A DNA stretch of 64,000 nt from Candidatus Multivorans sp. (GCA_965206765.1 OZ242222.1:193662-257661); one strand, 5' to 3'. Counted from the stretch's first letter, positions 6,664 through 27,540 are shown. The notes: generated by a model not told the origin, from the letters alone. Translations and numbers: made by a program.

Positions 6664-9600
6664 TTGTGGTTGTCACGCAATGCTGTGCTAGCGTGCGTCG
6701 CCATGGCGGCGTTCACTTCTGCGGATGGCTCTCCGGTTGACGTCGGCGCCGAGGTGCGGCGCCTCCGAAGTCAGCTCGGGTTGACCCAGGAACAATTCGG
6801 GGACCGTCTAGGCGTCTCGACCATCACCGTTCATCGATGGGAGTCCGGCCAGTCGCAACCGCGGCGGCTTGCGGTTGAGAAGTTGGCGCAACTCTCCGAG
6901 CAGGCGGCGGCAGAGTCGACTCCACGACCGATGCGAGGGCTTCGACTCTCAATTGCGGCTGCCGACGGCGCGCCGCTGGACTTCGCCGGCGATCCGGAGG
7001 CCGTCCTGGCAGTGGCGGACGCTTTGCGACTGTCGTTCGGGCATCAGTTCAACCCGGCGTTCGCGATCGAGACGTCACGCATCGACCCGTTGCTGCATCA
7101 GCGCTTCGCGGTCTACGAGCGGATGCTGAAGCAGGATCCGCTGCGGTTTCTGCTCGCCGACGACGCCGGCGCCGGGAAGACGATCATGACCGGCCTGTAC
7201 GTCCGCGAAATGTTGTCGCGTGGGCGTTTGAAGCGGGTGTTGATCGTTCCGCCAGCGGGTCTCGTGGGCAACTGGCGGCGGGAACTCCAGACCCTGTTTC
7301 GGCTCGACTTCCGGATCGTCACCGGCGCCGACGTGCGGGGGAGCAACCCGTTCCGCGGCGCGGGAAGCGATCGCGTCATTGTCTCCGTGGACACGCTGGC
7401 GGGGGAGACCATGTTCGAGGCTCTTCGCCAAGCCGGTGGTCCGGCCTACGACTTGGTCGTTTTCGACGAGGCCCACAAGCTGAGCGTGCGTGAACGGGGA
7501 GTCCGGGTCGAGCGAACTCTCCGTTACAAGTTGGCCGAGGCGCTGGCTGTCAGGGCCGACTCGGGCAGTTCCTTTGGCGGGCTCGGCTGGACTGCCCGGC
7601 ATCTGCTGCTGCTTACCGCTACGCCGCACATGGGCAAGAGCGTCCCCTACGCATGGCTCTGGAGACTGCTCGATGCCGACGCCTTCGGGGCAGTGGAAGC
7701 CGTACGCCGTGCCCCCCAACTGACCCGCGACCGGCACTTCCTTCGCCGCACGAAGGAGGAAATGGTCGGCCTCGACGGCGAGCCGCTCTACCCGCAGCGC
7801 AAATGCAGCACGTTCACGTACGAGCTGAGCGGAGGGGACTGCGGCGAGCAGGATCTCTACGACCGCACGACGCAGTACCTCGATGAGCACTACGGCCGCG
7901 CTCTCGACAATCAACCGGCGCTGGAACTGGCCAAGACCGTGTTCCAGCGACGCCTTGCCAGCTCGACCTGGGCGTTGTTGCGCTCCTTCGAGCGGCGGAT
8001 CGAGAAGCTCGCGCAGACCGCGGACGCGATCGAGAGCGGCGAACTCACCGCGGAGCTGTTGCAGCGCAGGCAGGCGCTGCTGGGCAACCGCTATCGGCAC
8101 GACTATTTCGACGACACGGCCGCGGACGAGGACGTGGCGTCGGACGGCTTTGCCGAGGGAAACGAGGCCTACGAGGATGCGGTGCTCGGCGCGGTCACCG
8201 TGGTCGGCGTGGAGGAGCTGAGGCGCGAGGCCCGGCAGGTCGAGACGTTGGCGGAGCGGGCGCGCCGGCTGGTCGATTCCGGGCGGGAGACGAAGTTCGA
8301 GCGCTTGCAAGAGGTCCTGGAGAGGCCCGAGCATCAGAACGAGAAGTGGCTCATTTTCAGTGAGCACCGGGACACGGTGGACTACCTGGTGCGGCGACTT
8401 GAGGGGCTCGGATACCGGGGGCAGACAGCGCAGATCCATGGCGGCATGGACTGGAAGGAGCGCGACCGCCAGGTGGAGGCCTTTCGCCGTCCGAACGGCG
8501 CGCGCTACATGGTGGCCACCGACGCCGCGGGGGAGGGCATCAACCTGCAGTTCTGCCGCTTGATGGTCAACTACGACATTCCGTGGAACCCGGCCCGCTT
8601 GGAACAGCGGATGGGCCGGATCCATCGCTACGGCCAGCAGTTCGAGGTCCGAATCGTGAACCTGGTAGCGGGCAGCACGCGCGAGGGACGGGTGCTGCAG
8701 GTGCTTCTGGAGAAGCTCGAGGAGATTCGTGCTGAACTGGCCTCCGACAAGGTGTTCGATGTCATCGGCCGCCTGTTCGAGGGCGAGTCGCTGACCGGGT
8801 TCATGGCCAACGCCGTGACCGCGGAGGGCGAGCGGCTGGCTGTTGACCGGATCGAAGAAGCGCTCGGCACTTCCAGGGTGAAGAGAATCCGCGCGCGCGA
8901 CGCCGAGGTCTACGGCGTGCCGAAACAGAAGGTGACCGGTGAGGACCTGCGACCGGACGTGGAGCGAGAGCGTTACCTGCAGCTCCTTCCTGCACACGTT
9001 CGTCGGCTAGTGGAACGTGGGGCCCGCCTGCTCGACGTCGAGATTCGCGGCGACCTGGACGACCGGTTCGCACTCGAGCCGGGCCGTCCCGGCGCGCTCG
9101 ACCCCTTGCTGTTGGCGCTGGAAGCCTATCCGCCCGAGGCGCGCGACTGGTTGACTGTTCGCCGGCCTCGGGAAGACGACACCGGCATCTGGCTCCATCC
9201 CGGCGAGCCGCTGTTCGACGCTCTGTGCACGCATATCCGGTCTCGCTATGGCAGGGACGCGCAGCGCGGCGCCATCTTCGTCGATCCGAGGGCCGGGGAG
9301 CCCTACCTACTTCATCTCGCCGAGTTGCGGGTGGAGCGGAAGGACGTCCCTGGGAACGCCGTCGCCTCCGTCCCTGGGAACGCGGGCGTCTCGCCCGCAT
9401 CCGGCCCGGAAGGGTCGCCCCAGACCGGTTCGGCGGTACTTCCGGTTGCCGACCGGCGCGTTCTGGAACGCCGGCTGGTGGCGTTGCAGCAACGAGAGGG
9501 CGCCCAGCCGGTTCAGTGCCCCGTTGAGCAACTGCTGTCGCTTTCCGGCACCGGTCTGGCGCCTGGCATGGCGCCGCTGGCGCCGCGCGCCCCTGTGCTG

Positions 9601-10476
9601 CGGGCGCAGGCCGGCGCCCACCTGAACAACGTCCTCCAGGATCTGGTTGCCGACCTCCGCGCCAGACGCGAGGCCGAGTCGCCGGACCTCCGGCGGCGCG
9701 TTGCCGTGGGCTTCGATCTGCGCGCGGCCGAGTTGGCCTCTCGGCGCGGGAAGCTCGCGCGGAAGAGGGTCGGCCCAGGCGAGGCCGACGGCGATGAACT
9801 CAAGGCAGTGAAGCACGAGCAGAGGCGACTGTCCTGCGACCGCGAACTCGCACTGCGGCGGATCGATGAGGAGGCACGGGGCATCGTTCCCGGCGGCTCC
9901 CGGTTCCTGCTTCACGCGCTTGTCGTTCGCCCGGAGGATGTGGCCGGGCTGGAGACCATCGAGCGGTTCGACGAGGCCGTGGAGGAGATCGCAGTCCGCA
10001 TCGCCGCCGATTGGGAGCGTCAACACGGCGCCCAGGTCCAGGACGTGTCAAAGCCTGTGCTCGCCCGCGCGGCGGGTCTGCCCGACTGGCCCGGCTTCGA
10101 CCTTCTGGCGACGCTGCCGGGCGGCGGCCAGCGCTGCATCGAAGTGAAGGGCCGCTCGGCCCGCTCCGCGGTTCCGGTCGAGAACAACGAATGGGCCCAG
10201 GCATGCAAGCTGGGCGACCGGTACTGGCTCTACGCCGTCCTCGACTGCGCCACGCCGGCGCCCGAACTGCTCCGGGTCCGGAACCCGTTCGAGAAGCTGC
10301 TGGCGCACCAGCGGGTCAAGACCGTGTTCGATGTGCCGGTGGGATCGTTGATCGAAGCTGCGGAGGCCGAAGAACCGAAGCTGGAACCCGCGCGGCGCGA
10401 CTCCGCGCCGGGCGCGAACCAGTCCGAGCGTCCGTCAGCGGGCGCACGGATGGCAGGTCGGGGGGGACCAACATGA
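6664..10476 (+). CDS. XRE-family HTH fused to an SNF2/DEXH-box helicase with a C-terminal DUF3883 (restriction-endonuclease-like) domain. This is the helicase component of the DUF499/DUF1156 restriction-modification-like module.
   Basis: HTH: LGLTQEQFGDRLGVSTITVHRWESG. Motif I: DDAGAGKT. Motif II: FDEAHKL. HelicC: GEGINLQ...RIHRYGQ. DUF3883: CIEVKGRSA...NNEWAQA...YWLYAV. TTG start at 6664, with an alternative ATG at 6703. Confidence 0.85.
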   Translation: MWLSRNAVLACVAMAAFTSADGSPVDVGAEVRRLRSQLGLTQEQFGDRLGVSTITVHRWESGQSQPRRLAVEKLAQLSEQAAAESTPRPMRGLRLSIAAADGAPLDFAGDPEAVLAVADALRLSFGHQFNPAFAIETSRIDPLLHQRFAVYERMLKQDPLRFLLADDAGAGKTIMTGLYVREMLSRGRLKRVLIVPPAGLVGNWRRELQTLFRLDFRIVTGADVRGSNPFRGAGSDRVIVSVDTLAGETMFEALRQAGGPAYDLVVFDEAHKLSVRERGVRVERTLRYKLAEALAVRADSGSSFGGLGWTARHLLLLTATPHMGKSVPYAWLWRLLDADAFGAVEAVRRAPQLTRDRHFLRRTKEEMVGLDGEPLYPQRKCSTFTYELSGGDCGEQDLYDRTTQYLDEHYGRALDNQPALELAKTVFQRRLASSTWALLRSFERRIEKLAQTADAIESGELTAELLQRRQALLGNRYRHDYFDDTAADEDVASDGFAEGNEAYEDAVLGAVTVVGVEELRREARQVETLAERARRLVDSGRETKFERLQEVLERPEHQNEKWLIFSEHRDTVDYLVRRLEGLGYRGQTAQIHGGMDWKERDRQVEAFRRPNGARYMVATDAAGEGINLQFCRLMVNYDIPWNPARLEQRMGRIHRYGQQFEVRIVNLVAGSTREGRVLQVLLEKLEEIRAELASDKVFDVIGRLFEGESLTGFMANAVTAEGERLAVDRIEEALGTSRVKRIRARDAEVYGVPKQKVTGEDLRPDVERERYLQLLPAHVRRLVERGARLLDVEIRGDLDDRFALEPGRPGALDPLLLALEAYPPEARDWLTVRRPREDDTGIWLHPGEPLFDALCTHIRSRYGRDAQRGAIFVDPRAGEPYLLHLAELRVERKDVPGNAVASVPGNAGVSPASGPEGSPQTGSAVLPVADRRVLERRLVALQQREGAQPVQCPVEQLLSLSGTGLAPGMAPLAPRAPVLRAQAGAHLNNVLQDLVADLRARREAESPDLRRRVAVGFDLRAAELASRRGKLARKRVGPGEADGDELKAVKHEQRRLSCDRELALRRIDEEARGIVPGGSRFLLHALVVRPEDVAGLETIERFDEAVEEIAVRIAADWERQHGAQVQDVSKPVLARAAGLPDWPGFDLLATLPGGGQRCIEVKGRSARSAVPVENNEWAQACKLGDRYWLYAVLDCATPAPELLRVRNPFEKLLAHQRVKTVFDVPVGSLIEAAEAEEPKLEPARRDSAPGANQSERPSAGARMAGRGGPT

Positions 10477-11021
10477 TGATGAGAAAGGAACAACGAAAGA
10501 TGGGACTCACCCACGTTCAAGTGACTATCCGAAACCCCGCCGACGCCGAGCGAAGCTGGGCAGGCGCCTTCCTGGTCGACACCGGCGCCATCGACTCCCT
10601 CGTGCCGAGAGAGCGACTGGAGCAGATCGGTTTGAAGCCGAAGGGGCGGCGGGTCTACGGATTTGCGGATGGAAGAGAAGCTGCGATGGACATCACGGTT
10701 GCGGAGTTGGAGTTCATGGGGGAGGTCATCGGCAGCACGGTCGTCTTCGGAAGAGAGGGCTCTGAACCTCTCCTGGGCGTTACGGCGCTGGAGTCGATGG
10801 GCATCGAGATCGATCCTGTGAGTCAACGACTGAGGAAGCTGCCTTCGATTCACTTGAAGACGACAGCAGACTCCGAACGGCCCTTGCGGGTGACCTCCGA
10901 GCAAGAGCCGGAAGGCGCGCGTTCCGCCACGGGCCATCCGATGCCCACCGACCTGATGAGGCCGCCCGAGGAGGCCTCGGCCCGGCCGCGTTCGGCAGGA
11001 CCTCTGAGGGGGACTGCATGA
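10473..11021 (+). CDS. Retropepsin-like (clan AA) aspartyl protease. Its start ATG overlaps the helicase stop (ATGA).
   Basis: FLVDTGAIDSLVP carries the catalytic D-T-G. The overall pattern is that of the bacterial PF13650/PF13975-like aspartyl protease family. The tool ORF at 10011 has a 154-aa N-terminal extension that lies inside the helicase gene. Confidence 0.7.
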   Translation: MMMRKEQRKMGLTHVQVTIRNPADAERSWAGAFLVDTGAIDSLVPRERLEQIGLKPKGRRVYGFADGREAAMDITVAELEFMGEVIGSTVVFGREGSEPLLGVTALESMGIEIDPVSQRLRKLPSIHLKTTADSERPLRVTSEQEPEGARSATGHPMPTDLMRPPEEASARPRSAGPLRGTA

Positions 11022-12124
11022 CTGCCTTCGAAGTTGCTGTCGTGCTGCTCGACTCGGTCGAGGAGCACCCCAACGCCGACCGTTTGGAGTTGGCCCGCGT
11101 CGGCGGCTACCGCAGTGTCGTTCCCAAGGGGAAGTACCGGGCCGGTGAGCGGGTCGCCTACATCCCGGAGAACGCGATCGTTCCGGAGGATTTGCTGAGA
11201 AGCATGGGACTTTGGGATGGCGATGCCGGCAAGGGCCGGCTCGGCGGCAAGAAGGGCGACCGGGTCCGGCCGGTCAGGCTGCGGGGCGAGATCTCCCAGG
11301 GTCTGGTATTCAAGCCGGCGGACGATGCAGCGGTCGGCGACGATCTGGCCGCCGCCTACGGCATCACGAAGTACGAGCCGAAGCTCCCCACAACGATGTC
11401 CGGCCAGGTCGCCCACGTCGGCGGCTTCCTCGTTTCCTATGACATCGAGAACATCAAGAAGTACCCGGACGTGTTCGTGCCCGGTGAGATGGTCGTGGTG
11501 ACCGAGAAACTTCACGGGACATACGCGTGCTTCAGCTACATCCCGCCGCCGGACGGCGCCTCGCTCCCCGACGATCTGCCCAACGGCGCCGTGTTGGTGT
11601 CGTCGAAGGGACTCGGCGCGAAGGGCCTGGCGTTCAAGGACGTGGAGGACAACAAGAACAACCTCTACCTGCGAACGTGGAGGGAGCAGTTGCGAGACAC
11701 CGGCGTCTGGCGCCGCGTGGAGGACTCCGCTCAGGGTCCCGTCCACATCATGGCCGAGATCTTCGGTCGCGGCGTGCAGGACCTGCACTACGGGTTGGCG
11801 CGTCCGTCGCTGAGAGTCTTCGACGTGTTCCTGGGGCCGCCCGCCACCGGTTCGTTCCTTGGCTACGACGCGCTCTGCCGGACGACCGACGCCTGGGGCA
11901 TGGACCGGGTGCCGGAACTCGCCGTTGCTCCGTTCAGCGAAGATCTGATCGAAGAGCACCGCGACGGACCCGACACCGTGTCCGGCAACCACATGCGGGA
12001 AGGCATCGTCATCACGCCCAGGCAGGAGCGGCAGGACCGGCGGCTGCACCGGGACAGGGTGAAGCTGAAGGCAGTCAGCCCCGACTACCTGTTCCGCCGG
12101 GGGAAGAGGACGGAGTACGAATAG
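11018..12124 (+). CDS. ATP-dependent RNA ligase (Rnl2/DRB0094-like nucleotidyltransferase) with an N-terminal tRNA-binding OB domain. ATGA overlap with the protease stop.
   Basis: tRNA_bind-like HPNADRL...G. Ligase motif I: EKLHGT (KxHG, as in T4 Rnl2 KIHGT). Further motifs: EIFG, REGIVI, KLK. Confidence 0.65.
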   Translation: MTAFEVAVVLLDSVEEHPNADRLELARVGGYRSVVPKGKYRAGERVAYIPENAIVPEDLLRSMGLWDGDAGKGRLGGKKGDRVRPVRLRGEISQGLVFKPADDAAVGDDLAAAYGITKYEPKLPTTMSGQVAHVGGFLVSYDIENIKKYPDVFVPGEMVVVTEKLHGTYACFSYIPPPDGASLPDDLPNGAVLVSSKGLGAKGLAFKDVEDNKNNLYLRTWREQLRDTGVWRRVEDSAQGPVHIMAEIFGRGVQDLHYGLARPSLRVFDVFLGPPATGSFLGYDALCRTTDAWGMDRVPELAVAPFSEDLIEEHRDGPDTVSGNHMREGIVITPRQERQDRRLHRDRVKLKAVSPDYLFRRGKRTEYE

Positions 12125-12244
12125 CATGCTCGTCTTGCCGGGATCGCGGGATGAAGTAGGGAGAGTGCGTTTGAATGTTCGTGGGCGCATTCGCATCCTG
12201 TATTCCGTATCGCTCTGCCAGACTGGATTGAGGAGAGGTGCGTA

Positions 12245-13480
12245 GTGCGTTGGACGTTGCAACGACCTGAAATCGGAAACGAGGATGGTTTCGAGAAGAC
12301 GGATCTCTTCGGTTACGCGAATCTCGGAGCAAGGCTGGCGAACGTGATCGCCGGTTTGGAGGACGATCCCATTGTCGTTCTGGATGGCGGCTGGGGCAGC
12401 GGCAAGACGACCTTCGCCCTTCAGTGGGCGGGTCTCCTGAGGCGGCGAGGTACAGCGGTCCTCTACTTCGATGCGTTCGCCTGCGACCATGAGGAGGATG
12501 CACTCCTAGCCTTCGCCGAGGAGGTCTACTGCTTCGCCGAGAAGGAAGGCGTGGCCAAGGAGCATCTCGGCAACTTTGCGGCCAAGGGAGCGAAAGCGAT
12601 CAAGGCGGCCTCACTTGCTGCGTTCAAGTCGCTCGGCGGGAACGTTCTGGGGGTCGACATCACCGCCGCCGCGACGGAGATCGCAGGAGTGCTGACGGAG
12701 GAGTCCCGGCTGGAGGCTTGGATCAGCGGAGTCGCGGCTCGCAGGCACGCAGTGGAGGACTTTCGGGCCGAACTCCAGCGGCTTGCCGGCGCGGTGGCGG
12801 AGAAGGCTCGCGAACGAGTCGAGGAGAAGAGTGCCGAGACGGCTGCCGAAAGTGAGCGCCCGCAGGCGGCAGGGCGGCTGGTCATCGTTGTGGATGAGCT
12901 GGACCGCTGCAGGCCAGCTTTCGCGCTGAGCGTACTGGAACGCGTCAAGCATGTGTTCGGCGTTCCGGGAGTGACATTCGTGCTCGTGGCAAACCTGGAC
13001 GAGCTTGGGAAGTCGGTCCGGTTTGCCTACGGCGAGGTGGACGCAGAGAAGTACCTGGAGAAGTTCTACGACCTTGTCGTGCGGCTTCCGGATGCTCGGA
13101 GGGCTGGCAGCGGCGTACCGAAGACGCGGATCTACGCTGCGTATCTCGAAGAGAGGCTGTTGTCGGGGTTCTCGAATCTCGAGATACACATGCGGGCCCT
13201 CACAAGACTCGCCGAGAAGGAGCGGATGTCTTTACGGACTATGGAGCATGTGGTTCGCAATGTCGCCGTTCTGGCGCTTGGAGAACACGGCGGTTGGGAC
13301 AGTTGGAATGCGCTGTCCGTCCCGGTGCTTGTCAGCGTCATTCGTCTCGTCTATCCGGAACTTTTCGCTCAGATAAGAGAGGGGCAGCCTGATGGCTTGG
13401 AAGAAGGGGATTGGGAGAAAGTGACGGAGTTGGCGGAAGAGATTCTGTTTGGCGCGAACCAGGACAGGACACTAGTGTAG
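12245..13480 (+). CDS. KAP-family P-loop NTPase. The native C-terminus of about 29 aa was replaced by IS630 insertion; its last 3 codons are IS-derived.
   Basis: Walker A: LDGGWGSGKTTF. KAP-type Walker B: VIVVDELDRCRP. GTG start at 12245 preceded by GAGGAGAGG. The ORF runs into the IS630 left inverted repeat. Confidence 0.8.
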   Translation: MRWTLQRPEIGNEDGFEKTDLFGYANLGARLANVIAGLEDDPIVVLDGGWGSGKTTFALQWAGLLRRRGTAVLYFDAFACDHEEDALLAFAEEVYCFAEKEGVAKEHLGNFAAKGAKAIKAASLAAFKSLGGNVLGVDITAAATEIAGVLTEESRLEAWISGVAARRHAVEDFRAELQRLAGAVAEKARERVEEKSAETAAESERPQAAGRLVIVVDELDRCRPAFALSVLERVKHVFGVPGVTFVLVANLDELGKSVRFAYGEVDAEKYLEKFYDLVVRLPDARRAGSGVPKTRIYAAYLEERLLSGFSNLEIHMRALTRLAEKERMSLRTMEHVVRNVAVLALGEHGGWDSWNALSVPVLVSVIRLVYPELFAQIREGQPDGLEEGDWEKVTELAEEILFGANQDRTLV

Positions 13481-14611
13481 TGTCTCCGACTTGGGTTGAC
13501 AGTTTCGGTTAAGTTCGTCAGTATTCCGTTCATGTGGGAACCAGCGGAACGAATTGACATCGAAGAGAGCGATCGAGCGCTTCTCAAGAAATGGGTAGAG
13601 GCGCCGACGACCACGCAACGCACGGTCCGGCGTAGCCGGATCGTGCTCGCTGCGGCGGAGGGCATGGCCAATCGGGCGATCGCGGCGAAACTCGGAGTTT
13701 CGCGGCCGACGGTGCTGCTGTGGCGTCGTCGGTTCGCGGAGGACGGACCTTCGGGGCTGACCAGGGATCGTCCCCGCGGTTGCGGAAAGCCGCCGCTCTC
13801 GGAGTCGGTCGTGCGTAAAGTGATCGAAGCGACGCTGCACGAGAAGCCGCCCGGTCAGACCCACTGGAGCGTGCGTTCGATGGCTCGGGCCCAGGGCATC
13901 AGTCCGGCGGCGGTCCAGCGCATCTGGGCGGCGCACGGGCTGAAGCCCCATCTGGTCAAGACGTTCAAGCTGAGCAACGACCCCAGGTTCGTGGAAAAGC
14001 TGCGGGACGTTGTGGGCCTGTACCGGAATCCGCCCGAGAACGCGCTTGTGCTGTGCGTGGACGAGAAGAGCCAGATCCAGGCTCTGGACCGGACCCAGCC
14101 GGGCTTGCCGCTCAAGCGCGGCCGCGCGGGAACGATGACCCACGACTACAAGCGCAACGGGACGACGACGTTGTTCGCTGCGCTGAACGTGTTGGAGGGC
14201 ACGGTGATCGCGGAGTGCATGGGCCGGCAGCGCCATCAGGAGTTTCTCCGTTTCCTCAAGCGTCTCGACCGCGAGATCCCGAACCATCTCGACCTGCACC
14301 TGATCCTGGACAACTACCAGACCCACAAACACGCCGCCGTGCGCGCATGGCTGGAGCGAAAGCCTCGCTTCCACTTCCATTTCATTCCCACTTCGTCGCC
14401 CTGGCTTAACCTGGTCGAACGCTGGCTGGGCGGTCTGACCACGAAGGCGATCCGGCGCGGTGCATTCCAGAGCGTCAACGACCTCGTAAAGACCATCTAC
14501 GACTACGTGGAGAACAGCAACCAAAACTCCCGTCCCTTCGTCTGGACGGCCACCGCCGACAGCATCATCGCAAAGGTTACACGTGGTAAAGCCATGTTGG
14601 AGACAGTACAC
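13475..14611 (+). mobile_element. IS630-family insertion sequence (about 1.14 kb) with imperfect terminal inverted repeats and TA target-site duplication.
   Basis: Left end GTGTAGTGTCTC (13475-13486) and right end GAGACAGTACAC (14600-14611) match 11/12 as inverted repeats. Flanking TA at 13473-13474 and 14612-13. Confidence 0.75.
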
Positions 14612-14614
14612 TAG
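13496..14614 (+). CDS. IS630-family DDE transposase.
   Basis: HTH N-terminus, then LCVDEKSQIQAL...DNYQTHKH...FHFIPTSSPWLNLVERWL. Possible alternative start at 13532. Confidence 0.85.
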   Translation: MTVSVKFVSIPFMWEPAERIDIEESDRALLKKWVEAPTTTQRTVRRSRIVLAAAEGMANRAIAAKLGVSRPTVLLWRRRFAEDGPSGLTRDRPRGCGKPPLSESVVRKVIEATLHEKPPGQTHWSVRSMARAQGISPAAVQRIWAAHGLKPHLVKTFKLSNDPRFVEKLRDVVGLYRNPPENALVLCVDEKSQIQALDRTQPGLPLKRGRAGTMTHDYKRNGTTTLFAALNVLEGTVIAECMGRQRHQEFLRFLKRLDREIPNHLDLHLILDNYQTHKHAAVRAWLERKPRFHFHFIPTSSPWLNLVERWLGGLTTKAIRRGAFQSVNDLVKTIYDYVENSNQNSRPFVWTATADSIIAKVTRGKAMLETVH

Positions 14615-14700
14615 CGAACGAGATACTGGACAAATCGAAGTTGTCGCCCCGCAGCGGGCTGTCCGAGGCCGCACGGAAGCTCGATGCCTTTGATGTATAG
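14615..14700 (+). other. Displaced original 3' end of the KAP NTPase gene. In-frame continuation ...ANEILDKSKLSPRSGLSEAARKLDAFDV* once the IS630 and one TA are removed.
   Basis: Joining 13474 to 14614 restores an open frame that runs to the TAG at 14698-14700. Confidence 0.5.
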
Positions 14701-14716
14701 GGCGATGTGCAGAAAC

Positions 14717-15992: not shown

Positions 15993-16020
15993 TGCAGAAA
16001 CACACTAGAGGGAGAGCGAT

Positions 16021-17030: not shown

Positions 17031-17041
17031 GCGTCGGGTCC

Positions 17042-20400: not shown

Positions 20401-20722
20401 TTCCGAGGCCCGGCTAAAGCCCTGGAACCGCCGCCGCAGCCGCAATCTGGGCCAGCCGGCGGCGGACGGCGCGCCGCCGCCCCTGATCGACTGCGTCCAT
20501 CGGCTGATGCAACTCTGGAAGACCGGCGAGCAGACGCGCGTGGATCGCTACCTGGCCGACCGCGGGCTATGGCGCCACGAACTGTTCGCCCGCGTCGTTC
20601 AGGCGGTCATCGAACTCGCCGGCGAGGGCGCCGAAGAGCGGTCCATCCTGGAGTCGATCCAGAACCACCTGCAGGGCCGCGGCGCCGCCGCGCCCGCTCC
20701 GCGGCAGCGGAGCATGTTGTAG
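17405..20722 (+). CDS. DUF1156 (COG1743) N6-adenine DNA methyltransferase with Zn-ribbon, about 1100 aa. This is the methylase component of the DUF499/DUF1156/helicase module.
   Basis: N-terminus RLIEAAFPL...EKNVRHGHISTLHIWPARRPLAACRA is typical of DUF1156. Motif I: LDPFAGGGAIPLEA. Motif IV: DPPY in FDVICTDPPYYDAIPYSD. Zn-ribbon: CANC...CPCC. Probable GTG start at 17405 (the tool ORF starts at TTG 17306). Confidence 0.85.
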   Translation: MNPDTRLIEAAFPLRQTSLDSVHEKNVRHGHISTLHIWPARRPLAACRAALLATLLPDPGDAEGRRRLMARIAGEVRQRQTPAGKLKDETAGGVLHWGRESSPELEKLRHEVREAFGGRAPRVLDPFAGGGAIPLEAMRLGCDVTASDLNPVAWFVLRCTLHYPRLLAGQELPLPDFAVRDRSFVEAFLKAQGVTKKVALRERLRELGHSDGEPVQLRSALLDRAVDSTRIGERTAAARDSDPSLGTRAFRPHPARDGAGPALPADFPWHLRAWGRRVLAEARRELARRYPTYAEFEPVRRKGRGRRNAEVSFPERRFRPRSPELLEPDDEGNVSVAAVNAEFDSVHLENEANPRWVAKPTVAYLWARTVRCANCRAELPLLKTRWLCKKPGKRILLQVTPRKDGSGVDFALEHGVPEGEGNAARRREHDRRLGAATMSRSGAKCPCCSAIATMADLRNEGRAGRLGERMTAVVVGGQQGKEYRLPTEAEIAVAAVGEEELRCLYAELPFGLPEEPTPSEKALGMRVPRYGFDTWRKLFTNRQLLALGMFVRSIRSAPAGMNDYPEEWREALSVCLAPSISRLTDRCSTLATWTNDHDKIRSTFARFALPMVWDFAESCPLADTTGGFVQAAEWVARVCEHLQRAAKDAPLPEVAQKSATRSWGSGAFDVICTDPPYYDAIPYSDLMDFFFVWLRRTLYGVSAAGDDAFAGPLGPKWNAAASSGQGDGELIDDASRFGGDRRASKQNYEDGMARAFGRFHDALRDDGRLVIVFANKQPDAWETLVSALIRAGFVVCGSWPIHTERLNRQRSLASAALSSSIWLVCRRRPAAARPGWDGGVLAEMRSNITDRLRQFWDAGIRGPDFVWAATGPALEAFSRHPVVKKADAQGELLSVAEFLRQVRRMVVGFAVSRLLANGSDESRAAVELDDLTTYYLLHRHDYGLDAAPAGACILYAVSCNLSDAELAGGLDLLARGGASTTAVSDEDGDEDGPETAGSASEARLKPWNRRRSRNLGQPAADGAPPPLIDCVHRLMQLWKTGEQTRVDRYLADRGLWRHELFARVVQAVIELAGEGAEERSILESIQNHLQGRGAAAPAPRQRSML

Positions 20723-20731
20723 GTTCGCTCG

Positions 20732-21130
20732 ATGCTCACTTCGCTCCGTCTGCGGAACTTCAAGAACTTCGCGGACGAGACGCTGCGCATGGGGCCGTTC
20801 ACCGTGCTGGTGGGCGCCAACGCGAGCGGCAAGAGCAACGTCCGCGACGCGCTCCGCTTTCTGCACGGAATCGGCCGCGGATATCGCCTCGCCGATACAA
20901 TCGGCGGCCGGTACGGCGCCGCCGGACAGGCGGGGTGGGCACCGATTCGGGGCGGGGTCGACGAGATTGTCCGTTTCGGAGAGGACCAGTTCACTCTCAC
21001 GGTCGAGACCGGGCTGCCCGGGATCTTCTTTAACCGATACGGGATCGTGGTTGGTGAGGGCAGTAAGGAAGCCGCCGCATTCCGTGTGGAAGACGAGTAT
21101 CTGCGTTCTCGGACGTTCAAGTCGACCGCG
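20732..21130 (+). pseudogene. N-terminal remnant (about 130 aa) of an AAA_21/ABC-like ATPase. Has Walker A but no Walker B or signature motif.
   Basis: LRLRNFKNFADETLRMGPFTVLVGANASGKSNVRDALRFL is a typical AAA_21 N-terminus. The similarity is lost after about residue 135 and the ORF decays into low-complexity sequence. Confidence 0.55.
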
Positions 21131-21167
21131 TCCATTTCCGCATCGAGGAGACGATGTGCCCGATCTC

Positions 21168-22226
21168 GTGAAACCGAAAGTCGGCGTCAGGCTTCTTGTC
21201 GGAGCGTGGCTGGTCGCGGCGGCCGCGGCCGCCCAGACCGACCCGGCACCGCCCAACTTCCACGACGTCCACTTCCACCTGGCGAACTACGTTCAGCGCG
21301 GCATCACCCTGAACGACTTCCTGGAGATCACAGGCGACCGGGTCGGTCGCGCGGCGGTGTTTGGCATCCCCCTGCAACAGAAGTGGGACTACTTCGAGTC
21401 GGGTGATAGGGCGCCGGACTACTACCTGCACTCGGACGCGGCGCTCTACTACTACTCCTTTGTCGACGCGATCATCGCTGAGCAGTACCAGTCGCTCTCA
21501 CCGGCGGAGCAGGAACGCTTCGATCCGATGATCACGGGCTTCAACCCGACCGACATGTACGCCGCGGACCACATTCGACGGGTGCTGGAGATGTACCCGG
21601 GCGTCTTCTCGGGGATCGGCGAGTTCTCCATCCACAAGGAGTTCGTGACGTCGAAGATCCTCGGTCACGGCGCCAGTCTGCGGAACCCGGCACTGGACCG
21701 TGTGCTCGAGTTCGCGGGCGAAGTGGGCCTGGCGGTCATCCTCCACAACGACATCGACACCGTGCTGCCTACGGGAGCGAACGAGCCGGTCCACCTGGAG
21801 CTGCTCCGCGAGATCTTCCGCTCCCACCCTGATGTCACGATCATCTGGGCGCACACCGGCCTCGGCCGTTTCGTCGGGCCGGCGCCGGACCATGTTCAGT
21901 TGCTCGACGGCCTGCTGTCGGACGAGGCGTATGCACACGTCCACTGCGACCTTTCGTGGGACGAGGTAGCGAAGTACATCGTGCGGGACGAAGCCTCGCT
22001 CGCCGCCTGGGCGGCGCTTCTGGAGCGTCATCCCGGCCGGTTCCTGTTCGGCACCGACTCCGTGGCCCCGGCGAGCCGCGAGCGGTATCTCAAGACTTGG
22101 CGTGACTACAAGCCCCTCTGGGAGCGCCTGAGCGAGGAGACACGTCACGCGATCACTCTCGGTAACTACGAGCGCATCTTCGACACCGCGAACCGCGAGG
22201 TGCGGGCTTGGGAAGCCCGGCGGTAG
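21168..22226 (+). CDS. Secreted amidohydrolase-2 family (TIM-barrel metal-dependent hydrolase) protein.
   Basis: GTG start gives signal peptide MKPKVGVRLLVGAWLVAAAAAAQ. HFH metal-binding motif and PF04909-like pattern follow (HxH...H...D). Confidence 0.6.
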   Translation: MKPKVGVRLLVGAWLVAAAAAAQTDPAPPNFHDVHFHLANYVQRGITLNDFLEITGDRVGRAAVFGIPLQQKWDYFESGDRAPDYYLHSDAALYYYSFVDAIIAEQYQSLSPAEQERFDPMITGFNPTDMYAADHIRRVLEMYPGVFSGIGEFSIHKEFVTSKILGHGASLRNPALDRVLEFAGEVGLAVILHNDIDTVLPTGANEPVHLELLREIFRSHPDVTIIWAHTGLGRFVGPAPDHVQLLDGLLSDEAYAHVHCDLSWDEVAKYIVRDEASLAAWAALLERHPGRFLFGTDSVAPASRERYLKTWRDYKPLWERLSEETRHAITLGNYERIFDTANREVRAWEARR

Positions 22227-22297
22227 GGCACGTAAACAGCGTCGCGGCGGCGTCGGAGAGATCGGGGGATCACCAGTGGACACTTACCCGGTGCTGG

Positions 22298-22330
22298 CCA
22301 CCTGTACACCCTCCCGTAAGTCCACCTGTA
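22298..22330. promoter_or_regulatory. Direct repeat CCACCTGTA twice (22298-22306 and 22322-22330) in a lower-GC intergenic region upstream of the AAA_21 ATPase gene.
   Basis: Read directly. The spacing is 24 bp start-to-start. This is a candidate regulator binding site or promoter element. Confidence 0.25.
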
Positions 22331-22340
22331 AGCTGTCGCG

Positions 22341-23615
22341 ATGATCCGCCGAATCCAGGCGCTCAACTACCGCTGCCTGCGGTCGATCGACATTGAGCTC
22401 GACCGATTTCATGTCCTCGTTGGGCCGAACGGCTCCGGTAAGAGCACGCTGCTCGACGTCGTCGGCTTCCTGGGCGACATGGTGTCCGAGGGCCTGCAGG
22501 CAGCCGTCGACGCACGGACCAGGAACTTCCAGGATCTGGTTTGGGGGCGGCCCAGGAACGGACTCGGCTTCGAACTGGCGGTGGAGTTCGATCTGCCCCA
22601 GGACGTGAAGAGCAAGCTTCCCAAGGAGAAAGGATTCGAGCTGTTTCGCTACGAAATCAAGATCAAGGAGGACGACCGGACCGGGGTACGAATCGAGTCA
22701 GAGAGAGGGCTTCTCCTTTCCCGCGTGGAGGAGGCGGCTCCTCTGCAAGGCGTCCTCCGGTTCCCCGACCCGCCGGAGGCCCCTGCAACGATTCTTCTTG
22801 GTGGCCGGCGACGCGGAGCCAGAACCATACTCAGCAAGTCCAGTGCAGGACGAGACAATTTCAACATCGAAGTGTCTGAAGAGTCGGGCAAGGGATGGGC
22901 AATAAGCATCTCGTTCGGCCCAGGACGATCGACCCTGCGAAACCTGCCGGAGTCCCCAGAGAAGTTCCCCGCTTCGACCTACGTCAAGCGTCTGCTTGAG
23001 ACGGGAACCCACAGACTGTTCCTCGATAGTGAACGAATGCGTCAGTCCAGTCCTCCTGGACGCCAGATCGAAGCCATTTCGTACGACGGCTCCAACCTCC
23101 CCCGCGTCATTAGGAGGCTTCGGGAAGAGTGCGGAGAGAAGTTCGAACAATGGCTGAGCCATGTTCGCGCGTCCCTGCCAGCGGTTCGGGACATTCGCGT
23201 TGAAGAGCGCGATGAGGACCGGCACTGTTATCTCGTGATTTGCTACGAGACGGGAGTAGAGGTTCCCTCATGGATGGTCTCGGACGGGACCCTGCGCCTG
23301 CTGGCTTTGACCTTGCCTGCGTATCTGGTTGACGTAAACAAGATCTACGTGATCGAGGAACCCGAGGACGGATTGCATCCAGGGGTCATGCAGGATGTGT
23401 ACGACGCGCTTTCTTCCGTCTACGACTCCCAGGTGCTGCTGGCGACCCACTCCCCGATCTTCCTGAGCCACGCGGATCTCGAACACGTGCTCTGTTTCGG
23501 CATGGACCCACGTGGTGCGACGCACGTTATTCCTGCAACATGGCATCCCCGGCTCAAGGATTGGCAGGGAGATCCGGACCTGAGTGTCTACTTCGCGGCG
23601 GGAGTCCTGGGATGA
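22341..23615 (+). CDS. AAA_21/AAA_15-family ATPase (OLD/abortive-infection-type ABC ATPase without a nuclease domain).
   Basis: Walker A: LVGPNGSGKSTLLD. Walker B region: VIEEPEDGLHP. C-terminal LLATHSP motif. Confidence 0.8.
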   Translation: MIRRIQALNYRCLRSIDIELDRFHVLVGPNGSGKSTLLDVVGFLGDMVSEGLQAAVDARTRNFQDLVWGRPRNGLGFELAVEFDLPQDVKSKLPKEKGFELFRYEIKIKEDDRTGVRIESERGLLLSRVEEAAPLQGVLRFPDPPEAPATILLGGRRRGARTILSKSSAGRDNFNIEVSEESGKGWAISISFGPGRSTLRNLPESPEKFPASTYVKRLLETGTHRLFLDSERMRQSSPPGRQIEAISYDGSNLPRVIRRLREECGEKFEQWLSHVRASLPAVRDIRVEERDEDRHCYLVICYETGVEVPSWMVSDGTLRLLALTLPAYLVDVNKIYVIEEPEDGLHPGVMQDVYDALSSVYDSQVLLATHSPIFLSHADLEHVLCFGMDPRGATHVIPATWHPRLKDWQGDPDLSVYFAAGVLG

Positions 23616-24253
23616 GAGCCAGCGAGGAACCCCGCAGCCTGATCGTTCTGGCTGCGGACAAGCACATCAAGGCGTCCTTGGAGACGCTGCTTGAGCGGCG
23701 CCGGACGGACTTGGCTATTTGTGACATCACGTTCGAAGCGTATCGTCATCCACAGTCGGATCCGGGCTGCAGGACGAAAGCGGCTGAGTTTCTGCGCTCA
23801 TTCATCAGGCAGTACCGCTACGCACTCGTGGTCTTCGATTGGAACGGATGTGGCAGCACGAGCGCGGCAGAGAGCATTCAAGCCGCGGTCGAGCAGGACC
23901 TTGGCCGCAACGGCTGGATGGAGCGGTCGAAGGTGGTCGTGATCTCCCCGGAAGTTGAGGCTTGGGTGTGGAGTTCTTCCGACCACGTCGCACAGGTTCT
24001 TGGATGGGCCGGAGGGCTAGGCCGTCTTCGTTCGTGGCTCGAGGACAGAGGGCTCTGGTCGGCAGGCGACTTGAAGCCGGCTGATCCCAAGAAGGCTATG
24101 GCCCAAGCACTACGCCATCGGCGCCGAGTGCGATCGTCCGTGCTGTTCAGTGACTTGGCGGCTTCCGTCGAGTTCGACCGTTGCGAGGACCGTGCTTTCA
24201 AGGAGCTCATCGGGACGCTACGAACCTGGTTTCCGCGAAGCAAGGCGGCGTGA
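23612..24253 (+). CDS. DUF4276/RloB-like small partner of the AAA_21 ATPase. ATGA overlap with the ATPase stop and GTGA overlap with the DUF499 start.
   Basis: About 213 aa, immediately coupled to the ATPase. C-terminal EVEAWVW resembles the conserved E-x-E-A-W motif of DUF4276 partners. This assignment is by context and weak motif only. Confidence 0.45.
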   Translation: MRASEEPRSLIVLAADKHIKASLETLLERRRTDLAICDITFEAYRHPQSDPGCRTKAAEFLRSFIRQYRYALVVFDWNGCGSTSAAESIQAAVEQDLGRNGWMERSKVVVISPEVEAWVWSSSDHVAQVLGWAGGLGRLRSWLEDRGLWSAGDLKPADPKKAMAQALRHRRRVRSSVLFSDLAASVEFDRCEDRAFKELIGTLRTWFPRSKAA

Positions 24254-27200
24254 CCAGGCCACGTCCCAAACCCTGGCACGAAGTCGTCCGGCTCAAGGAC
24301 GAGCTGCGCTCGGGCGAACTGTCGCTGGCGGAGTTCGCAGCCGATCTGCATGAGGTCACGCTCAGACGGGGCAAGCGGCCGGTGTACGAGGAGCCGGAGA
24401 AGTTCTTCGCGCTGACCTATCCCACGCACGCGTTGCGGGAGCTCGTTCGTGATGTGGCGGCGCGGCTCGCGGGGCGAAGCGACAAGGCGGTGCGGCAGTT
24501 GGAGTTGACGTACGGCGGCGGCAAGACGCATACGTTGATCGCGCTCTATCACTTGTTCCGGGACCCGGATGGTCTGCCGGACGTGCCGGCGGTGAGTGAG
24601 TTTCGCCAACACGCGGGTCACCAGTTGCCGGGGGCGCACACGGCGGCGCTGTGCTTCGACAAGATCGACGTTGAACGCGGCATTGAGGGTGTGCGTTCTC
24701 CAGGTGGCGAGACCCGGACCCTGCGGCATCCGTGGAGCGTGCTCGCGTATCAACTCGGCGGCGATGACGGCCTGCGGGCGATCCACGGCGCGGGTAGTGC
24801 CGAGGAGCGTGAGACGCCCCCGGCCGAGCCCTTGCTGGTGAAGTTGCTGGAGCGCCCGCAAGAGCGCGGCCTCGGAACGCTCATCCTGGTAGACGAGGTC
24901 CTGATGTACGCGCGGGAGAAGGCCGGCCAGGACCGCGTGTGGCGGGATCGCATCATCGACTTCTTCCAGTACCTCGTGCAGGCGACAACGAAGGTCGACC
25001 GCGCGGCGCTGGTCGCATCCCTGCTCGCGACCGATCCCGCCAAGCAACAGGGCGCCGAGGGCCAGCGGCTGATCGAGGATCTGTTCGACGTGTTCCGCCG
25101 GCAGCGGGAGGAGGGCGTGCAGCCGGTCGGAAGGAAGGACGTGGCGGAAGTGCTGCGCCGGCGGTTCTTCGAGCCGGCGGCGTTGCGGGACACCGAGTCG
25201 TGGCGGTCGCAGGCGATCGGGGCGGTGCGAGAGCTGGCCGGTCTCGACGAGACGACAGCCAAGAACAGGAAGACGGAAGAGGACCGTTTCGAGGACAGCT
25301 TTCCATTTCATCCCGATCTGACCGACGTGTTCTACAGCCGGTGGACGCAGCTTCCGGGCTTTCAACGCACCCGCGGCATTCTGCGTATTCTGGCGACCGC
25401 GTTGCGTGAGGCAGAGTCCTGGGATGGGAGTCCCCTGGTGGGCCCTTCGGCGCTGCTGACGGCCCAAGGGACGGAGGGCATCTCGGAAGCCGTGCGCGAA
25501 CTGGCCGGCGTAGCGAGTTCGGAGGTCGGCGAGGGCGCGAGAACCGACTGGGTCACGCTGCTGGAGGCCGAGTTGGACAAGGCGCGGCAGATCCAGGCGG
25601 AGCTGCCGGCCCTGGCGGCCAGCCGCGAGTTGGAGCAGGCTGTGCTGGCGGTCTTCCTCTACTCTCAGCCGATCGGCCGGAAGGCCTCGACGCCGGAGTT
25701 GCTACGGATGGTCGGCGCCGGCGGTCCCGACAAGATCATGCTCCGCAAGGGGCTAGCCCGCTGGCGTGAACTGTCCTGGTTCCTGGACGACGAGGACGTC
25801 GGCGCCGATGTTCACGGCGTAGAGGGGGGCCTGCCCAAGTCCTGGCGGCTTGGCAATCGTCCCAATCTGCGCCAGATGCACGACGAGGCTTGCAAGGAGC
25901 GCGTGTCGACGCAGGCTGTCGAGGCCCGTCTCGAGGAGGCAGTTCGTCAAGCCAGAGTGCTCACGGACGGCGCCCGCGCTGCCGGCGCCGCCGTCCACAT
26001 GTTGCCGGCGTCCCCAAAGGATGTCGGCGACGATGGCGCCTTCCGCTACGTCGTGCTGGGACCGGATGCCGCCTCGGAATCCGGCAAGCCCAGCGCGCTG
26101 GCGAAGCGATATCTGGCCGAGACCACCAGCCCGGACCGCCCGCGTGTTCATCGCAATGCGGTAGTTCTGGGTGTGCCGTCGCGCGATGGCCTGGCGGCGG
26201 CCCGCGGCGGCATCCGCGCGTTGCTCGGCTGGGAGGACGTGAAAGGCCAGCTCACGGGGCAGACGGTCGATGCGATGCAGGCCGAGCGGCTCGGGCGGCA
26301 GCTTCGAGATGCGCGCGCGCGGGTTCCCGACGCCGTGCGGCAGGCGTACTGCGTGGTTGTTGCCGCGGGCACGGACGGCGACACGCAGGCGTTCAAGCTG
26401 CCGGGCGCCGCCGGGCCGCTGTTCAGCGAAATCAAGGGCGACCAGCGGTCACGGATCCGGGAGACTCCGGTCGACGCGGAAGCCCTCTTGCCGGGCGGAC
26501 CCTACGACTTGTGGCGTGAGGGTGAGCAGGCGCGATTCGTGAAGGACCTTGCCGGCGCATTCGCCCGCTATTCGCATCTCCCCAAGGTACTGAGGCCGCA
26601 GATCGTTCGTGAGACGGTGCTGCAGGGCGTGGAACGCGGTCTCCTCGTTGCCCAACTGGCGCGGCCGGACGGGAGTTGCCGAACCTGGTGGAGGGAGCCG
26701 GTGGATTCGGAATGCGTAGACGATCTTGCGCTTGAGGTGGTACTTCCGGGCGGCGCCGAGCTGAAACGTCTCGCCCCGTCCCTGCTGGAGCCGGGGAGGT
26801 TGCCAGGCCTGTGGCCGGATGGGGGCCGCGGAGTCGACCTCACAGCTCTGTTGGAGTACTTCGGCGGTGACTTCACGGTGACCGTCTCCCACGAGGGTTA
26901 CGACGACGTGGTCGAGATTCCGGGCTGCTCTCAGGCAGTCGCGGAAGAGGTCGTCTGTCAGGCCGTAGAGCAGGGCTTCGTATGGCTGCGCAACGGGCCG
27001 ACCTCGGTGTGGAAGGAGGAGGTTCCCTACGGCGCCCTCAATGAACGTGCGGTGCTGCTGCGGTCGCCCGATGAATTGACGCCCCAGGAACTGGTCGAGG
27101 AAGCGCTACCCGGGGCGTGGAGCGACGAACAGGCGACCGGCTGGGGCCTGTCGCAGGCGCTGTCGCAAGTCCGGGGGGAGCCGGTGCCGTGGGGGTTGCT

Positions 27201-27540
27201 GCGTGAGGGGATCTCCAACGCGGTGCGTAGTCGCTGGTTGGAGGTCGCCGAGGGCAGTACCTCGGCCAGTTCCGAAGACGCCGCCGCTTTGAAGATTCAA
27301 CGCCCAGCGGATGGCCAGACGCCCGAGCCATCGCCGGGTCCTCGTGTCGCCGACGCGCTGCTTGAGGCGAACGAGATCCAGGATCTTGCTGACAGGCTTC
27401 CCGATCTTCTAGGCGCCAGTGCCGGGTGCGGTTTGAAGTTTCGCGTGAGAGTGGAACTTGGCGAGGATGCACCGGCCGAAGCGCGTGACAAACTGAACGA
27501 GGTGCTCCGGGAGGTGTCGGACGATCTGAAGGCCGGGTAG
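24250..27540 (+). CDS. DUF499 (COG1483, BrxC/PglY-like) large AAA+ ATPase. This is the ATPase component of the DUF499/DUF1156/helicase module.
   Basis: GTG start gives MTRPRPKPWHEVVRLKDELRSGELSLAEFAADLHEV (typical DUF499 N-terminus). Walker A: TYGGGKTHTLIALYHL. Length about 1100 aa. Confidence 0.8.
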   Translation: MTRPRPKPWHEVVRLKDELRSGELSLAEFAADLHEVTLRRGKRPVYEEPEKFFALTYPTHALRELVRDVAARLAGRSDKAVRQLELTYGGGKTHTLIALYHLFRDPDGLPDVPAVSEFRQHAGHQLPGAHTAALCFDKIDVERGIEGVRSPGGETRTLRHPWSVLAYQLGGDDGLRAIHGAGSAEERETPPAEPLLVKLLERPQERGLGTLILVDEVLMYAREKAGQDRVWRDRIIDFFQYLVQATTKVDRAALVASLLATDPAKQQGAEGQRLIEDLFDVFRRQREEGVQPVGRKDVAEVLRRRFFEPAALRDTESWRSQAIGAVRELAGLDETTAKNRKTEEDRFEDSFPFHPDLTDVFYSRWTQLPGFQRTRGILRILATALREAESWDGSPLVGPSALLTAQGTEGISEAVRELAGVASSEVGEGARTDWVTLLEAELDKARQIQAELPALAASRELEQAVLAVFLYSQPIGRKASTPELLRMVGAGGPDKIMLRKGLARWRELSWFLDDEDVGADVHGVEGGLPKSWRLGNRPNLRQMHDEACKERVSTQAVEARLEEAVRQARVLTDGARAAGAAVHMLPASPKDVGDDGAFRYVVLGPDAASESGKPSALAKRYLAETTSPDRPRVHRNAVVLGVPSRDGLAAARGGIRALLGWEDVKGQLTGQTVDAMQAERLGRQLRDARARVPDAVRQAYCVVVAAGTDGDTQAFKLPGAAGPLFSEIKGDQRSRIRETPVDAEALLPGGPYDLWREGEQARFVKDLAGAFARYSHLPKVLRPQIVRETVLQGVERGLLVAQLARPDGSCRTWWREPVDSECVDDLALEVVLPGGAELKRLAPSLLEPGRLPGLWPDGGRGVDLTALLEYFGGDFTVTVSHEGYDDVVEIPGCSQAVAEEVVCQAVEQGFVWLRNGPTSVWKEEVPYGALNERAVLLRSPDELTPQELVEEALPGAWSDEQATGWGLSQALSQVRGEPVPWGLLREGISNAVRSRWLEVAEGSTSASSEDAAALKIQRPADGQTPEPSPGPRVADALLEANEIQDLADRLPDLLGASAGCGLKFRVRVELGEDAPAEARDKLNEVLREVSDDLKAG

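Follow-up and report, generated by a model that had tools for sequence, protein, structure and literature searches.

What kind of system is encoded at positions 6664-27540 of a 64,000-nt stretch of DNA from Candidatus Multivorans sp. (GCA_965206765.1 OZ242222.1:193662-257661; this whole stretch is called the window below), where three large genes on one strand are separated by kilobases of other genes? An initial annotation of this DNA described a helicase, a methyltransferase and an ATPase as the backbone of a composite defense island split by nested cargo, and suggested the name Hma (helicase-methylase-ATPase), which the authors of PADLOC gave to such an operon in 2021 (PMC8565338). Hma was re-described in 2026 in Nucleic Acids Research as a DUF499-centred BREX-related group; its Type 1 comprises the triads that include a helicase-restriction endonuclease fusion, and its nearest relative is Type-3 BREX (PMC12839542). 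Our analysis makes it very likely that we are dealing with a chromosomally encoded Hma system of this Type 1, that its two gene junctions are slots in which independent second-line modules were inserted, and that insertion sequence (IS) insertions and a deletion or rearrangement followed. The host is an uncultured acidobacterium of the Thermoanaerobaculia (Candidatus Multivorans-like).

We searched the proteins of the window with the profiles of Pfam-A, PADLOC, NCBIfam and PHROG. Since the G+C content was ~67% across the window, spurious open reading frames (ORFs) were abundant; the E-values of the profile matches were far beyond chance level. The PADLOC models HmaA, HmaB and HmaC were the top models for the respective three genes, all of which lie on the + strand where the initial annotation had placed them, with their catalytic motifs intact. 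The name Hma was thus correct, as both PMC8565338 and PMC12839542 equate it with the module of a helicase, a DUF1156 methyltransferase and a DUF499 ATPase. The gene hmaA (6664-10476, +; PADLOC HmaA 1.5e-157) encodes an XRE-type helix-turn-helix (HTH), an Snf2/SF2 helicase and a C-terminal NOV_C PD-(D/E)xK nuclease, and likely starts at the ATG at 6703. Its product matched Pfam HTH_31 (residues 27-78), SNF2-rel_dom, ResIII, Helicase_C (2.8e-25) and NOV_C (4.1e-10), the present Pfam name of DUF3883, in agreement with the family given by the annotation, and it retained GAGKT, DEAH and the D...IEVK of the nuclease domain. The gene hmaB (17405-20722, +; ORF 17306/17405-20722; PADLOC HmaB 9.1e-112) matched Pfam DUF1156 at 4.2e-17, above the gathering score and again as annotated, as well as NCBIfam DUF1156_antiphage at 3.5e-47. 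With intact FAGGG and DPPY motifs and two CxxC pairs, its product is a putative DUF1156 N6-adenine DNA methyltransferase, in which the large insert between motif I and DPPY would form the target-recognition domain with a 4-Cys zinc ribbon. The gene hmaC (24250-27540, +; ORF 24181/24250-27540) matched PADLOC HmaC at 9.5e-75 over 790 residues and PADLOC DUF499 at 7.4e-17, and NCBIfam DUF499_antiphage at 1.9e-24, which is under the equivalog cut-off. From its intact GGGKT and LILVDE motifs and its family, HmaC is predicted to be a DUF499-like AAA+ ATPase of the ORC/Cdc6 type; its C-terminal region is variable.

The hmaA-hmaB gap measures 6.9 kb (10477-17404) and the hmaB-hmaC gap 3.5 kb (20723-24249), and we verified both sizes and the two start/stop overlaps that had been reported, ATGA at 10473-10476 (hmaA and a protease gene) and GTGA at 24250-24253 (a gene for MAD4 and hmaC). 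Two further ATGA overlaps are found inside the gaps, at 11018-11021 (protease and RNA ligase) and 23612-23615 (MAD3 and MAD4). The annotation had proposed a comparison of synteny in related genomes, for which we scanned with HmaB, keeping one genome per species, and obtained 80 loci (L-numbers). The best HmaB matches (75-85% identity) came from Candidatus Multivorans and other metagenome-assembled genomes (MAGs) of Thermoanaerobaculia, and the next ones (56-68%) from Gammaproteobacteria, Spirochaetia, Gemmatimonadota, Latescibacterota, Chloroflexota and others. The order hmaA-hmaB-hmaC on one strand was conserved in 74 of the 80 loci, and the three genes were all adjacent in none of these 74. 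The A-B gap was at least 600 nt long in 71/74 loci (median, 3.1 kb) and the B-C gap in 62/74 (median, 2.0 kb); hmaB and hmaC were adjacent in 12/74. The N-terminal HTH of HmaA was kept in 62 of the 80 loci. Many MAGs are found among the relatives that carry Hma, and their names, taken alone, suggest marine-invertebrate or sponge microbiomes.

These interruptions agree with published surveys, in which embedded genes were found in 931 of 1,485 Hma systems (62.7%), 96.7% of them in the orientation of the host system, with ABC ATPases as the most common family (10.1101/2024.01.29.577857), and in which ~66.5% of hma loci carried insertions (PMC11232893). Gene embedding is therefore already documented as the norm for Hma, and the present locus is a well-resolved example rather than a new kind of system. 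The first of these surveys counted at most three embedded genes between neighboring hma genes (10.1101/2024.01.29.577857). Here we found ~8 in the first gap, including two transposase genes, and four in the second, so that the locus exceeds this limit and similar loci are under-counted. The limit is a threshold for detection with no biological meaning of its own, yet it would have kept the present locus out of that census.

The comparison with sister genomes separates the core from the content of its gaps. The core genes were 82-96% identical to their sister-genome counterparts and free of frameshifts. MAD3 and MAD4 were missing from L001 and L017, and L005 contained, in addition, a complete PDC-M07 pair together with a PDC-S01 gene. 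L010 carried a diverged (64-69%) Hma system with other cargo. Over the 74 loci, the B-C slot contained a PDC-M07-like pair in 23, MAD3/4 in 12 and both in 3; L039 and L041 had two MAD3/MAD4 pairs apiece. The locus thus shows Hma as a docking site for immune genes, near-identical cores being combined with differing slot cassettes. The gene amtB lies directly upstream of hmaA in L001, L005, L010 and L017, and the chromosomal site of the island is therefore conserved; it is bounded by amtB and by a gene for a CmcJ-like oxidoreductase. We found no tRNA gene within the window that could have served as an integration site. Several genomes or MAGs had two separate Hma loci (L034/L035, L021/L043, L060/L078, L004/L010 and L054/L056), for example OZ241907.1 (at 1.41 and 3.79 Mb), OZ241879.1, OZ220470.1 and two contigs of JAPVWO01.

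Divergence within the core was localized. Residues 551-650 of HmaB showed 50-56% identity to L001, L017, L002 and L005 and 42-54% to L003, compared with 80-100% in most other bins, and a second variable patch covered residues 201-300; both patches belong to the insert that separates motif I from DPPY. In window coordinates, identity dropped at 18455-19454 and 19055-19354 (HmaB residues 201-300 and 551-650) and at 26800-27540 (the C terminus of HmaC). The last 250 aa of HmaC were variable with respect to L001 and L017 and ~100% identical to L002. This pattern suggests recombinational shuffling of the HmaB specificity and HmaC sensor segments between related Hma systems. The most divergent core segments are the putative HmaB specificity region and the HmaC C-terminal region, which fits rapid retargeting.

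The hmaB-hmaC slot records the turnover of cassettes. Ten nucleotides after hmaB, L005 contains a full 433-aa PDC-M07A (2.4e-66) and a 189-aa partner, and the same pair is present in L010. At the same place, the window has an ORF (20732-21406, +) of which 20732-21130, ~132 aa of an OLD/ABC ATPase gene, matched PADLOC PDC-M07A at 5.8e-23 over only the first 123-142 positions of profiles that are 412-443 positions long; the partner gene (~190 aa) is absent. The homology of the window to L002 and L005 ends at ~21126-21130. From the partial match, the intact cassette in L005 and this break, we conclude that the window ORF is a deletion stump; the slot therefore contains no full-length PDC-M07A with its partner. 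Next comes an amidohydrolase gene (21170-22226, +, exact start uncertain; Pfam Amidohydro_2, 2e-13) with a signal-peptide-like N terminus, which matched no PADLOC model. The annotation had the family right and counted the gene as defense-like cargo, a status that the relatives do not support: in L010 the orthologue lies outside the Hma system, between hmaC and the CmcJ-like gene, and a CmcJ-like gene also flanks the island of the window. Judging from this synteny, it is probably a housekeeping gene of the flank that was trapped by a rearrangement, not a defense gene. L005 has at 15272-16777 (-), between its PDC-M07 pair and the amidohydrolase gene, an AAA_14/DUF4143 ATPase gene (PADLOC PDC-S01, 9.4e-49), and the window has no such gene.

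Directly upstream of hmaC are MAD3/HEC-01A (22341-23615, +) and MAD4/HEC-01B (23612-24253, +). MAD3 is an OLD-type ABC ATPase (Pfam AAA_21/AAA_15) with the Walker A motif GPNGSGKS, and it matched the NCBIfam equivalog antiphage_MADS3 at 453.6 bits (cut-off, 420), PADLOC HEC-01A at 1.3e-44 and PADLOC mad3 at 6.2e-37. MAD4 is a TOPRIM-like protein of 213 aa that matched the NCBIfam MAD4 equivalog at 215 bits (cut-off, 160) and PADLOC mad4. The initial annotation had called an AAA_21/DUF4276 pair; its first half was correct, and the second was not recovered, as Pfam DUF4276 gave no match to the MAD4 protein at E<=1 and the MAD4 homologues had no Pfam domain at all. The MAD4 model is OLD/TOPRIM-like, with residues D76, E114 and E116 invariant. 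Together with the equivalog scores, this leads us to propose that the pair is a split OLD-type nuclease. It also agrees with the definition of HEC-01, in which the gene of an ABC ATPase precedes that of a protein with a TOPRIM fold and conserved acidic residues for metal binding. Its overlaps (ATGA with MAD3, GTGA with hmaC) indicate that MAD4 is translationally coupled on both sides. HEC-01 (ABC ATPase plus TOPRIM) has been described as a cassette embedded in Hma, whose embedded genes are the source of the HEC and PDC candidates (10.1101/2024.01.29.577857).

The hmaA-hmaB slot opens with a gene for an aspartic protease (10473-11021, +), a 182-aa, clan-AA, retropepsin-like protein with a DTGA motif and a low-complexity C-terminal tail, which matched NCBIfam TIGR03698 at 74.7 bits (cut-off, 57) as well as Pfam gag-asp_proteas and Asp_protease_2. 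Its ATGA overlap predicts translational coupling to hmaA, and a second ATGA would couple it in the same way to the following RNA ligase gene (11018-12124, +). The ligase is an ATP-dependent enzyme of the DraRnl/TIGR02306 type (TIGR02306 203.6 bits; cut-off, 151), with an N-terminal OB domain and a nucleotidyltransferase domain, and with matches to Pfam RNA_ligase, to PHA02142 OB and to PHROG 968. Within Hma loci it was restricted to close relatives from the Multivorans clade. We rejected it as a general associate of Hma: outside this clade, identity did not exceed 53%, and three sampled homologues stood alone in unrelated or toxin-antitoxin-rich contexts. A role in RNA repair beside RNA-targeting toxins (HicA, TOPRIM nucleases) is plausible from its family. 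The third gene (12245-13480, +) encodes a KAP-family P-loop NTPase (PADLOC PDC-S20, 3.5e-57; Pfam KAP_NTPase, 5e-30), the last 28 codons of which were severed by an IS630-family element. The severed tail, at 14614-14700, translates to ANEILDKSKLSPRSGLSEAARKLDAFDV* and matches the C terminus of the intact homologue in L009.

The IS630-family element (13475-14611, +; transposase ORF 13496-14614; NCBIfam transpos_IS630, 275.9 bits) has 29-nt terminal inverted repeats (83%) and a TA target-site duplication on both sides. An IS4-family element (14717-15992, +; transposase 14774-15973; NCBIfam transpos_IS4_1, 260.2 bits) lies 16 nt downstream of the severed tail and has 18-nt inverted repeats (100%) and a 9-bp target-site duplication, TGCAGAAAC, at 14708-14716 and 15993-16001. 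Neither element was present in the four closest genomes, L001, L002, L005 and L017. Both were correctly recognized by the annotation; they are recent simple insertions and not the cargo cassettes it had taken them for, and the intact target-site duplications date the events as very recent. Upstream of hmaB and divergent from it are hicB (16563-17030, -; Pfam HicB_lk_antitox 34.2 bits, cut-off 27) and hicA (17042 to ~17296, -; Pfam HicA_toxin 32.2 bits, cut-off 27), 11 nt apart, in a position and orientation that are kept in L001-L004, L008, L011 and L017. The interval between IS4 and hicB (16001-16562) matched no family; within it lie an ORF of 105 aa (16021-16338), part of which is hydrophobic, and a 172-nt segment (16171-16342) that is 98% identical to L002 6170-6341 with differing flanking DNA. 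The family calls made earlier for the cargo, namely, aspartic protease, RNA ligase, KAP NTPase, IS630, IS4, HicB/HicA, AAA remnant, amidohydrolase and AAA_21 ATPase, were all borne out. The claim that the cargo is integrated into the operon stands only in that the genes are nested between the hma genes: the opposite-strand hicBA pair and the two IS elements of the first gap rule out a single operon. A scan of 6-25.9 kb for sigma-70 promoters returned none, and intrinsic terminator-like sites numbered 8, with 12.5 expected.

How might such a locus work? We propose, from the DPPY and FxGxG motifs and the family, that HmaB methylates adenines at N6 in a host-specific motif set by its variable insert and so marks self DNA. 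By analogy with BrxC, HmaC, an ORC/Cdc6-like protein with DNA-binding and variable sensor domains, would sense or load on unmodified DNA and assemble or license the complex. The Snf2 motor of HmaA would then translocate on unmodified DNA, which its PD-(D/E)xK NOV_C domain would nick or cut; nickase activity and protection against T4 have been shown for a Halomonas homologue, where HmaA alone protects through its NOV_C nickase (PMC11232893). The XRE HTH of HmaA probably serves for autoregulation or targeting of the protein. In the A-B slot, the coupled protease and RNA ligase, the KAP NTPase (PDC-S20) and hicBA may provide independent or back-up layers. In the B-C slot, MAD3/MAD4 may act as an ATP-controlled TOPRIM nuclease of the split OLD type, beside the PDC-M07 stump. 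Later, IS630 entered the KAP gene near its 3' end, IS4 landed just downstream, and a deletion or rearrangement would have removed most of PDC-M07 and left the flank amidohydrolase gene inside the system.

The protease deserves separate consideration. Its gene lies between hmaA and hmaB in 31/74 loci and, in 26/74 from several phyla, within 400 nt of the end of hmaA. An alignment of 33 homologues showed conserved FLVDTGA and EPLLGVTALES segments. The family comprises 4,381 proteins at E<=1e-5, the top 120 being at least 64% identical. Seven sampled neighborhoods included two Hma loci, one type I restriction-modification (RM) locus, one position directly upstream of an ABC-ATPase gene and its 189-aa partner and three positions after an ABC-2 transporter, each of the latter with AAA_21 genes a few kilobases away. 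In the RM locus (L083 7001-7381; ENA ERZ28763718, a contig of 3.29 Mb), a 64%-identical protease gene stands between an HTH-fused HsdM and HsdS, which mirrors its place after HTH-HmaA. We rejected the protease as an exclusive component of Hma, given that, among the seven homologues sampled, three come after an ABC-2 transporter and one stands before an ABC-ATPase pair. A link between the HTH of HmaA and the protease was likewise rejected, as the two did not correlate: the HTH occurs in 62/80 loci, many of them without protease. No PADLOC model covers the protease, and the text of two comparative Hma papers does not mention it. The protease is a recurrent, non-obligate associate of defense loci. 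A speculative and rather unlikely proposal is that it is no random cargo but assists, in a way not yet described, methylation-based systems in which an XRE HTH is part of the first protein (HTH-HmaA, HTH-HsdM), for example, by processing or releasing the HTH subunit as an on-switch. The arrangement resembles ImmR/ImmA-type switches, in which the gene of an XRE-type HTH protein and that of a small protease are neighbors on mobile or defense DNA. However, ImmA is a COG2856 zinc metalloprotease, whereas here the protease is a clan-AA aspartic enzyme, the HTH forms part of a helicase protein and does not correlate with the presence of the protease. The recurrent protease coupled to hmaA is a candidate for functional study, as is the DraRnl-type RNA ligase encoded behind it. 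The current picture of Hma is left unchanged by the locus. The interest of the locus lies mainly in this protease and in the fine-scale record of slot turnover, with one decayed cassette, one captured flank gene and two fresh IS elements.

Some of the embedded genes might instead be parts of the Hma machine, MAD3/MAD4 being an Hma-dependent effector, as in MADS, and the protease a regulator or processor. We hold this to be possible, on the unlikely side. MAD3 and MAD4 exceed their NCBIfam equivalog cut-offs, and in MADS, mad3 and mad4 are needed for resistance, which is abolished when either is deleted (10.1101/2023.03.30.534895). HEC-01 alone provided no defense in E. coli (10.1101/2024.01.29.577857), an AAA_21 pair stands between hmaB and hmaC in every Halomonas locus (PMC11232893), ABC-ATPase pairs occupy the B-C slot of 32/74 loci and the GTGA overlap joins MAD4 to hmaC. 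For the protease, its recurrence shortly after hmaA in different phyla, where the codons of the two genes often overlap or almost touch, and its place between HTH-HsdM and HsdS point in the same direction. Yet our closest relatives, L001 and L017, contain the same Hma system without MAD3/4, hmaB directly adjoins hmaC in 12 loci, the protease is missing between hmaA and hmaB in 43/74 loci, its family is also found away from Hma or RM genes and its presence is not tracked by the HTH of HmaA. Several results weigh against the reading of an Hma core with independent modules in its slots, or against its mechanism. Pfam-A DUF499 did not match HmaC even at E<=1; as a Pfam assignment, the DUF499 label of the annotation is therefore not supported, and it is through the PADLOC HmaC model that HmaC is counted as a member. 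A sequence search of the PDB with HmaB, HmaC and MAD4 returned no relative. The failure of HEC-01 to protect E. coli does not favor a self-sufficient module, and in Halomonas, overexpression of HmaB left the sensitivity of T4 to HmaA unchanged (PMC11232893). Because HmaA alone protected and HmaB overexpression had no effect there, the RM-like division of labor, as in the model for BREX-related systems (PMC12839542), is unproven. Finally, expression may suffer from the inserted IS elements and from hicBA on the other strand.

A second alternative is that IS insertions and rearrangements broke the locus, which would no longer function, and that the intact-looking ORFs are relics. The truncation of the KAP gene by IS630 with IS4 16 nt beyond, the 132-aa stump of PDC-M07A without its partner and a nondefense amidohydrolase gene between hmaB and hmaC are what a decaying island would show. 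However, the three Hma proteins, the protease, the RNA ligase and the MAD3/MAD4 pair are full-length with respect to their homologues and have intact catalytic motifs, the core genes are frameshift-free and 82-96% identical to those of sister genomes, and the perfect target-site duplications indicate very recent IS events, which affected no more than a single cargo gene and a spacer between genes. We therefore consider decay improbable. It is more improbable still, to the point of being very remote, that the locus is a variant of MADS, canonical BREX or DISARM. Such an assignment could invoke the MAD3 and MAD4 equivalogs and some weaker PADLOC matches: HmaB matched mad2 (6e-9) and PglX (3.8e-7), HmaA matched DrmD and BrxHII, and the KAP NTPase matched mad8 (8e-6). 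Against it, the Hma models were ahead of all alternatives by at least 60 orders of magnitude, and the PADLOC matches listed for the locus include no PglZ, BrxA/B/L or DrmA/B/C. MAD6-8 are mandatory in the detection model of MADS and MAD1-5 accessory (10.1101/2023.03.30.534895); only MAD3/4 are present here, with no match to mad6 or mad7 and only the weak similarity of the KAP NTPase to mad8, and we rejected membership in MADS. An Hma system with independent modules in its slots remains the reading that we favor.

Beyond the island as delimited here, the window holds further genes of interest. About 4 kb downstream of hmaC and on the opposite strand (31214-33429, -) is an AAA_15/AAA_21 ABC ATPase gene (PADLOC PDC-M38A, 6.1e-58; AbiLi, 1.5e-39) with its partner (PDC-M38B, 2.3e-41). 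With this PDC-M38 candidate pair, the defense island reaches past 6664-27540. Large eukaryote-like or adhesion-type proteins are encoded at 341-3226 (-), 39902-41941 (+) and 47419-50199 (-), with leucine-rich repeats and Calx-beta, Spondin_N, and an M14 peptidase with fn3 and PKD domains.

How does the locus compare with known systems? The annotation had stated that it is not canonical BREX, and indeed PglZ, BrxA/B and BrxL were not among the PADLOC matches listed for the proteins of 6.6-27.5 kb, where most ORFs that matched a family belong to other families and a few small ORFs (e.g., 16021-16338) had no family match. Type-3 BREX (BrxC, BrxXI/PglXI, BrxHII, PglZ, BrxA and BrxF) shares a homologous triad of ATPase, methyltransferase and Snf2 helicase, with HmaA matching the BrxHI/BrxHII models at 2.3e-93 and HmaB matching PglXI at 3.8e-7 (PADLOC), and self-marking by methylation is presumed for both. 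It differs in that PglZ, BrxA and BrxF are lacking here and that the effector would be the helicase-fused nuclease, not PglZ. Compared with OLD-family nucleases, PARIS (AriA/AriB) and Gabija (GajA), the two-gene MAD3/MAD4 arrangement has a much smaller TOPRIM protein (213 aa) and no DUF4435. In MADS, MAD3 and MAD4 work within an eight-gene system, of which MAD6-8 are missing here. HEC-01, to which MAD3/MAD4 of MADS are equivalent, likewise places an ABC ATPase and a TOPRIM-like partner directly upstream of hmaC, with an OLD-nuclease-like fold and conserved acidic residues. The closest system is Hma/Type-1 BREX-related itself. The locus differs from it by more embedded genes than the census limit, an HmaC too divergent for Pfam DUF499 and an uncultured acidobacterial host, and it agrees with it in its three proteins and their order, with genes embedded between the hma genes and ABC-ATPase pairs between hmaB and hmaC in both.

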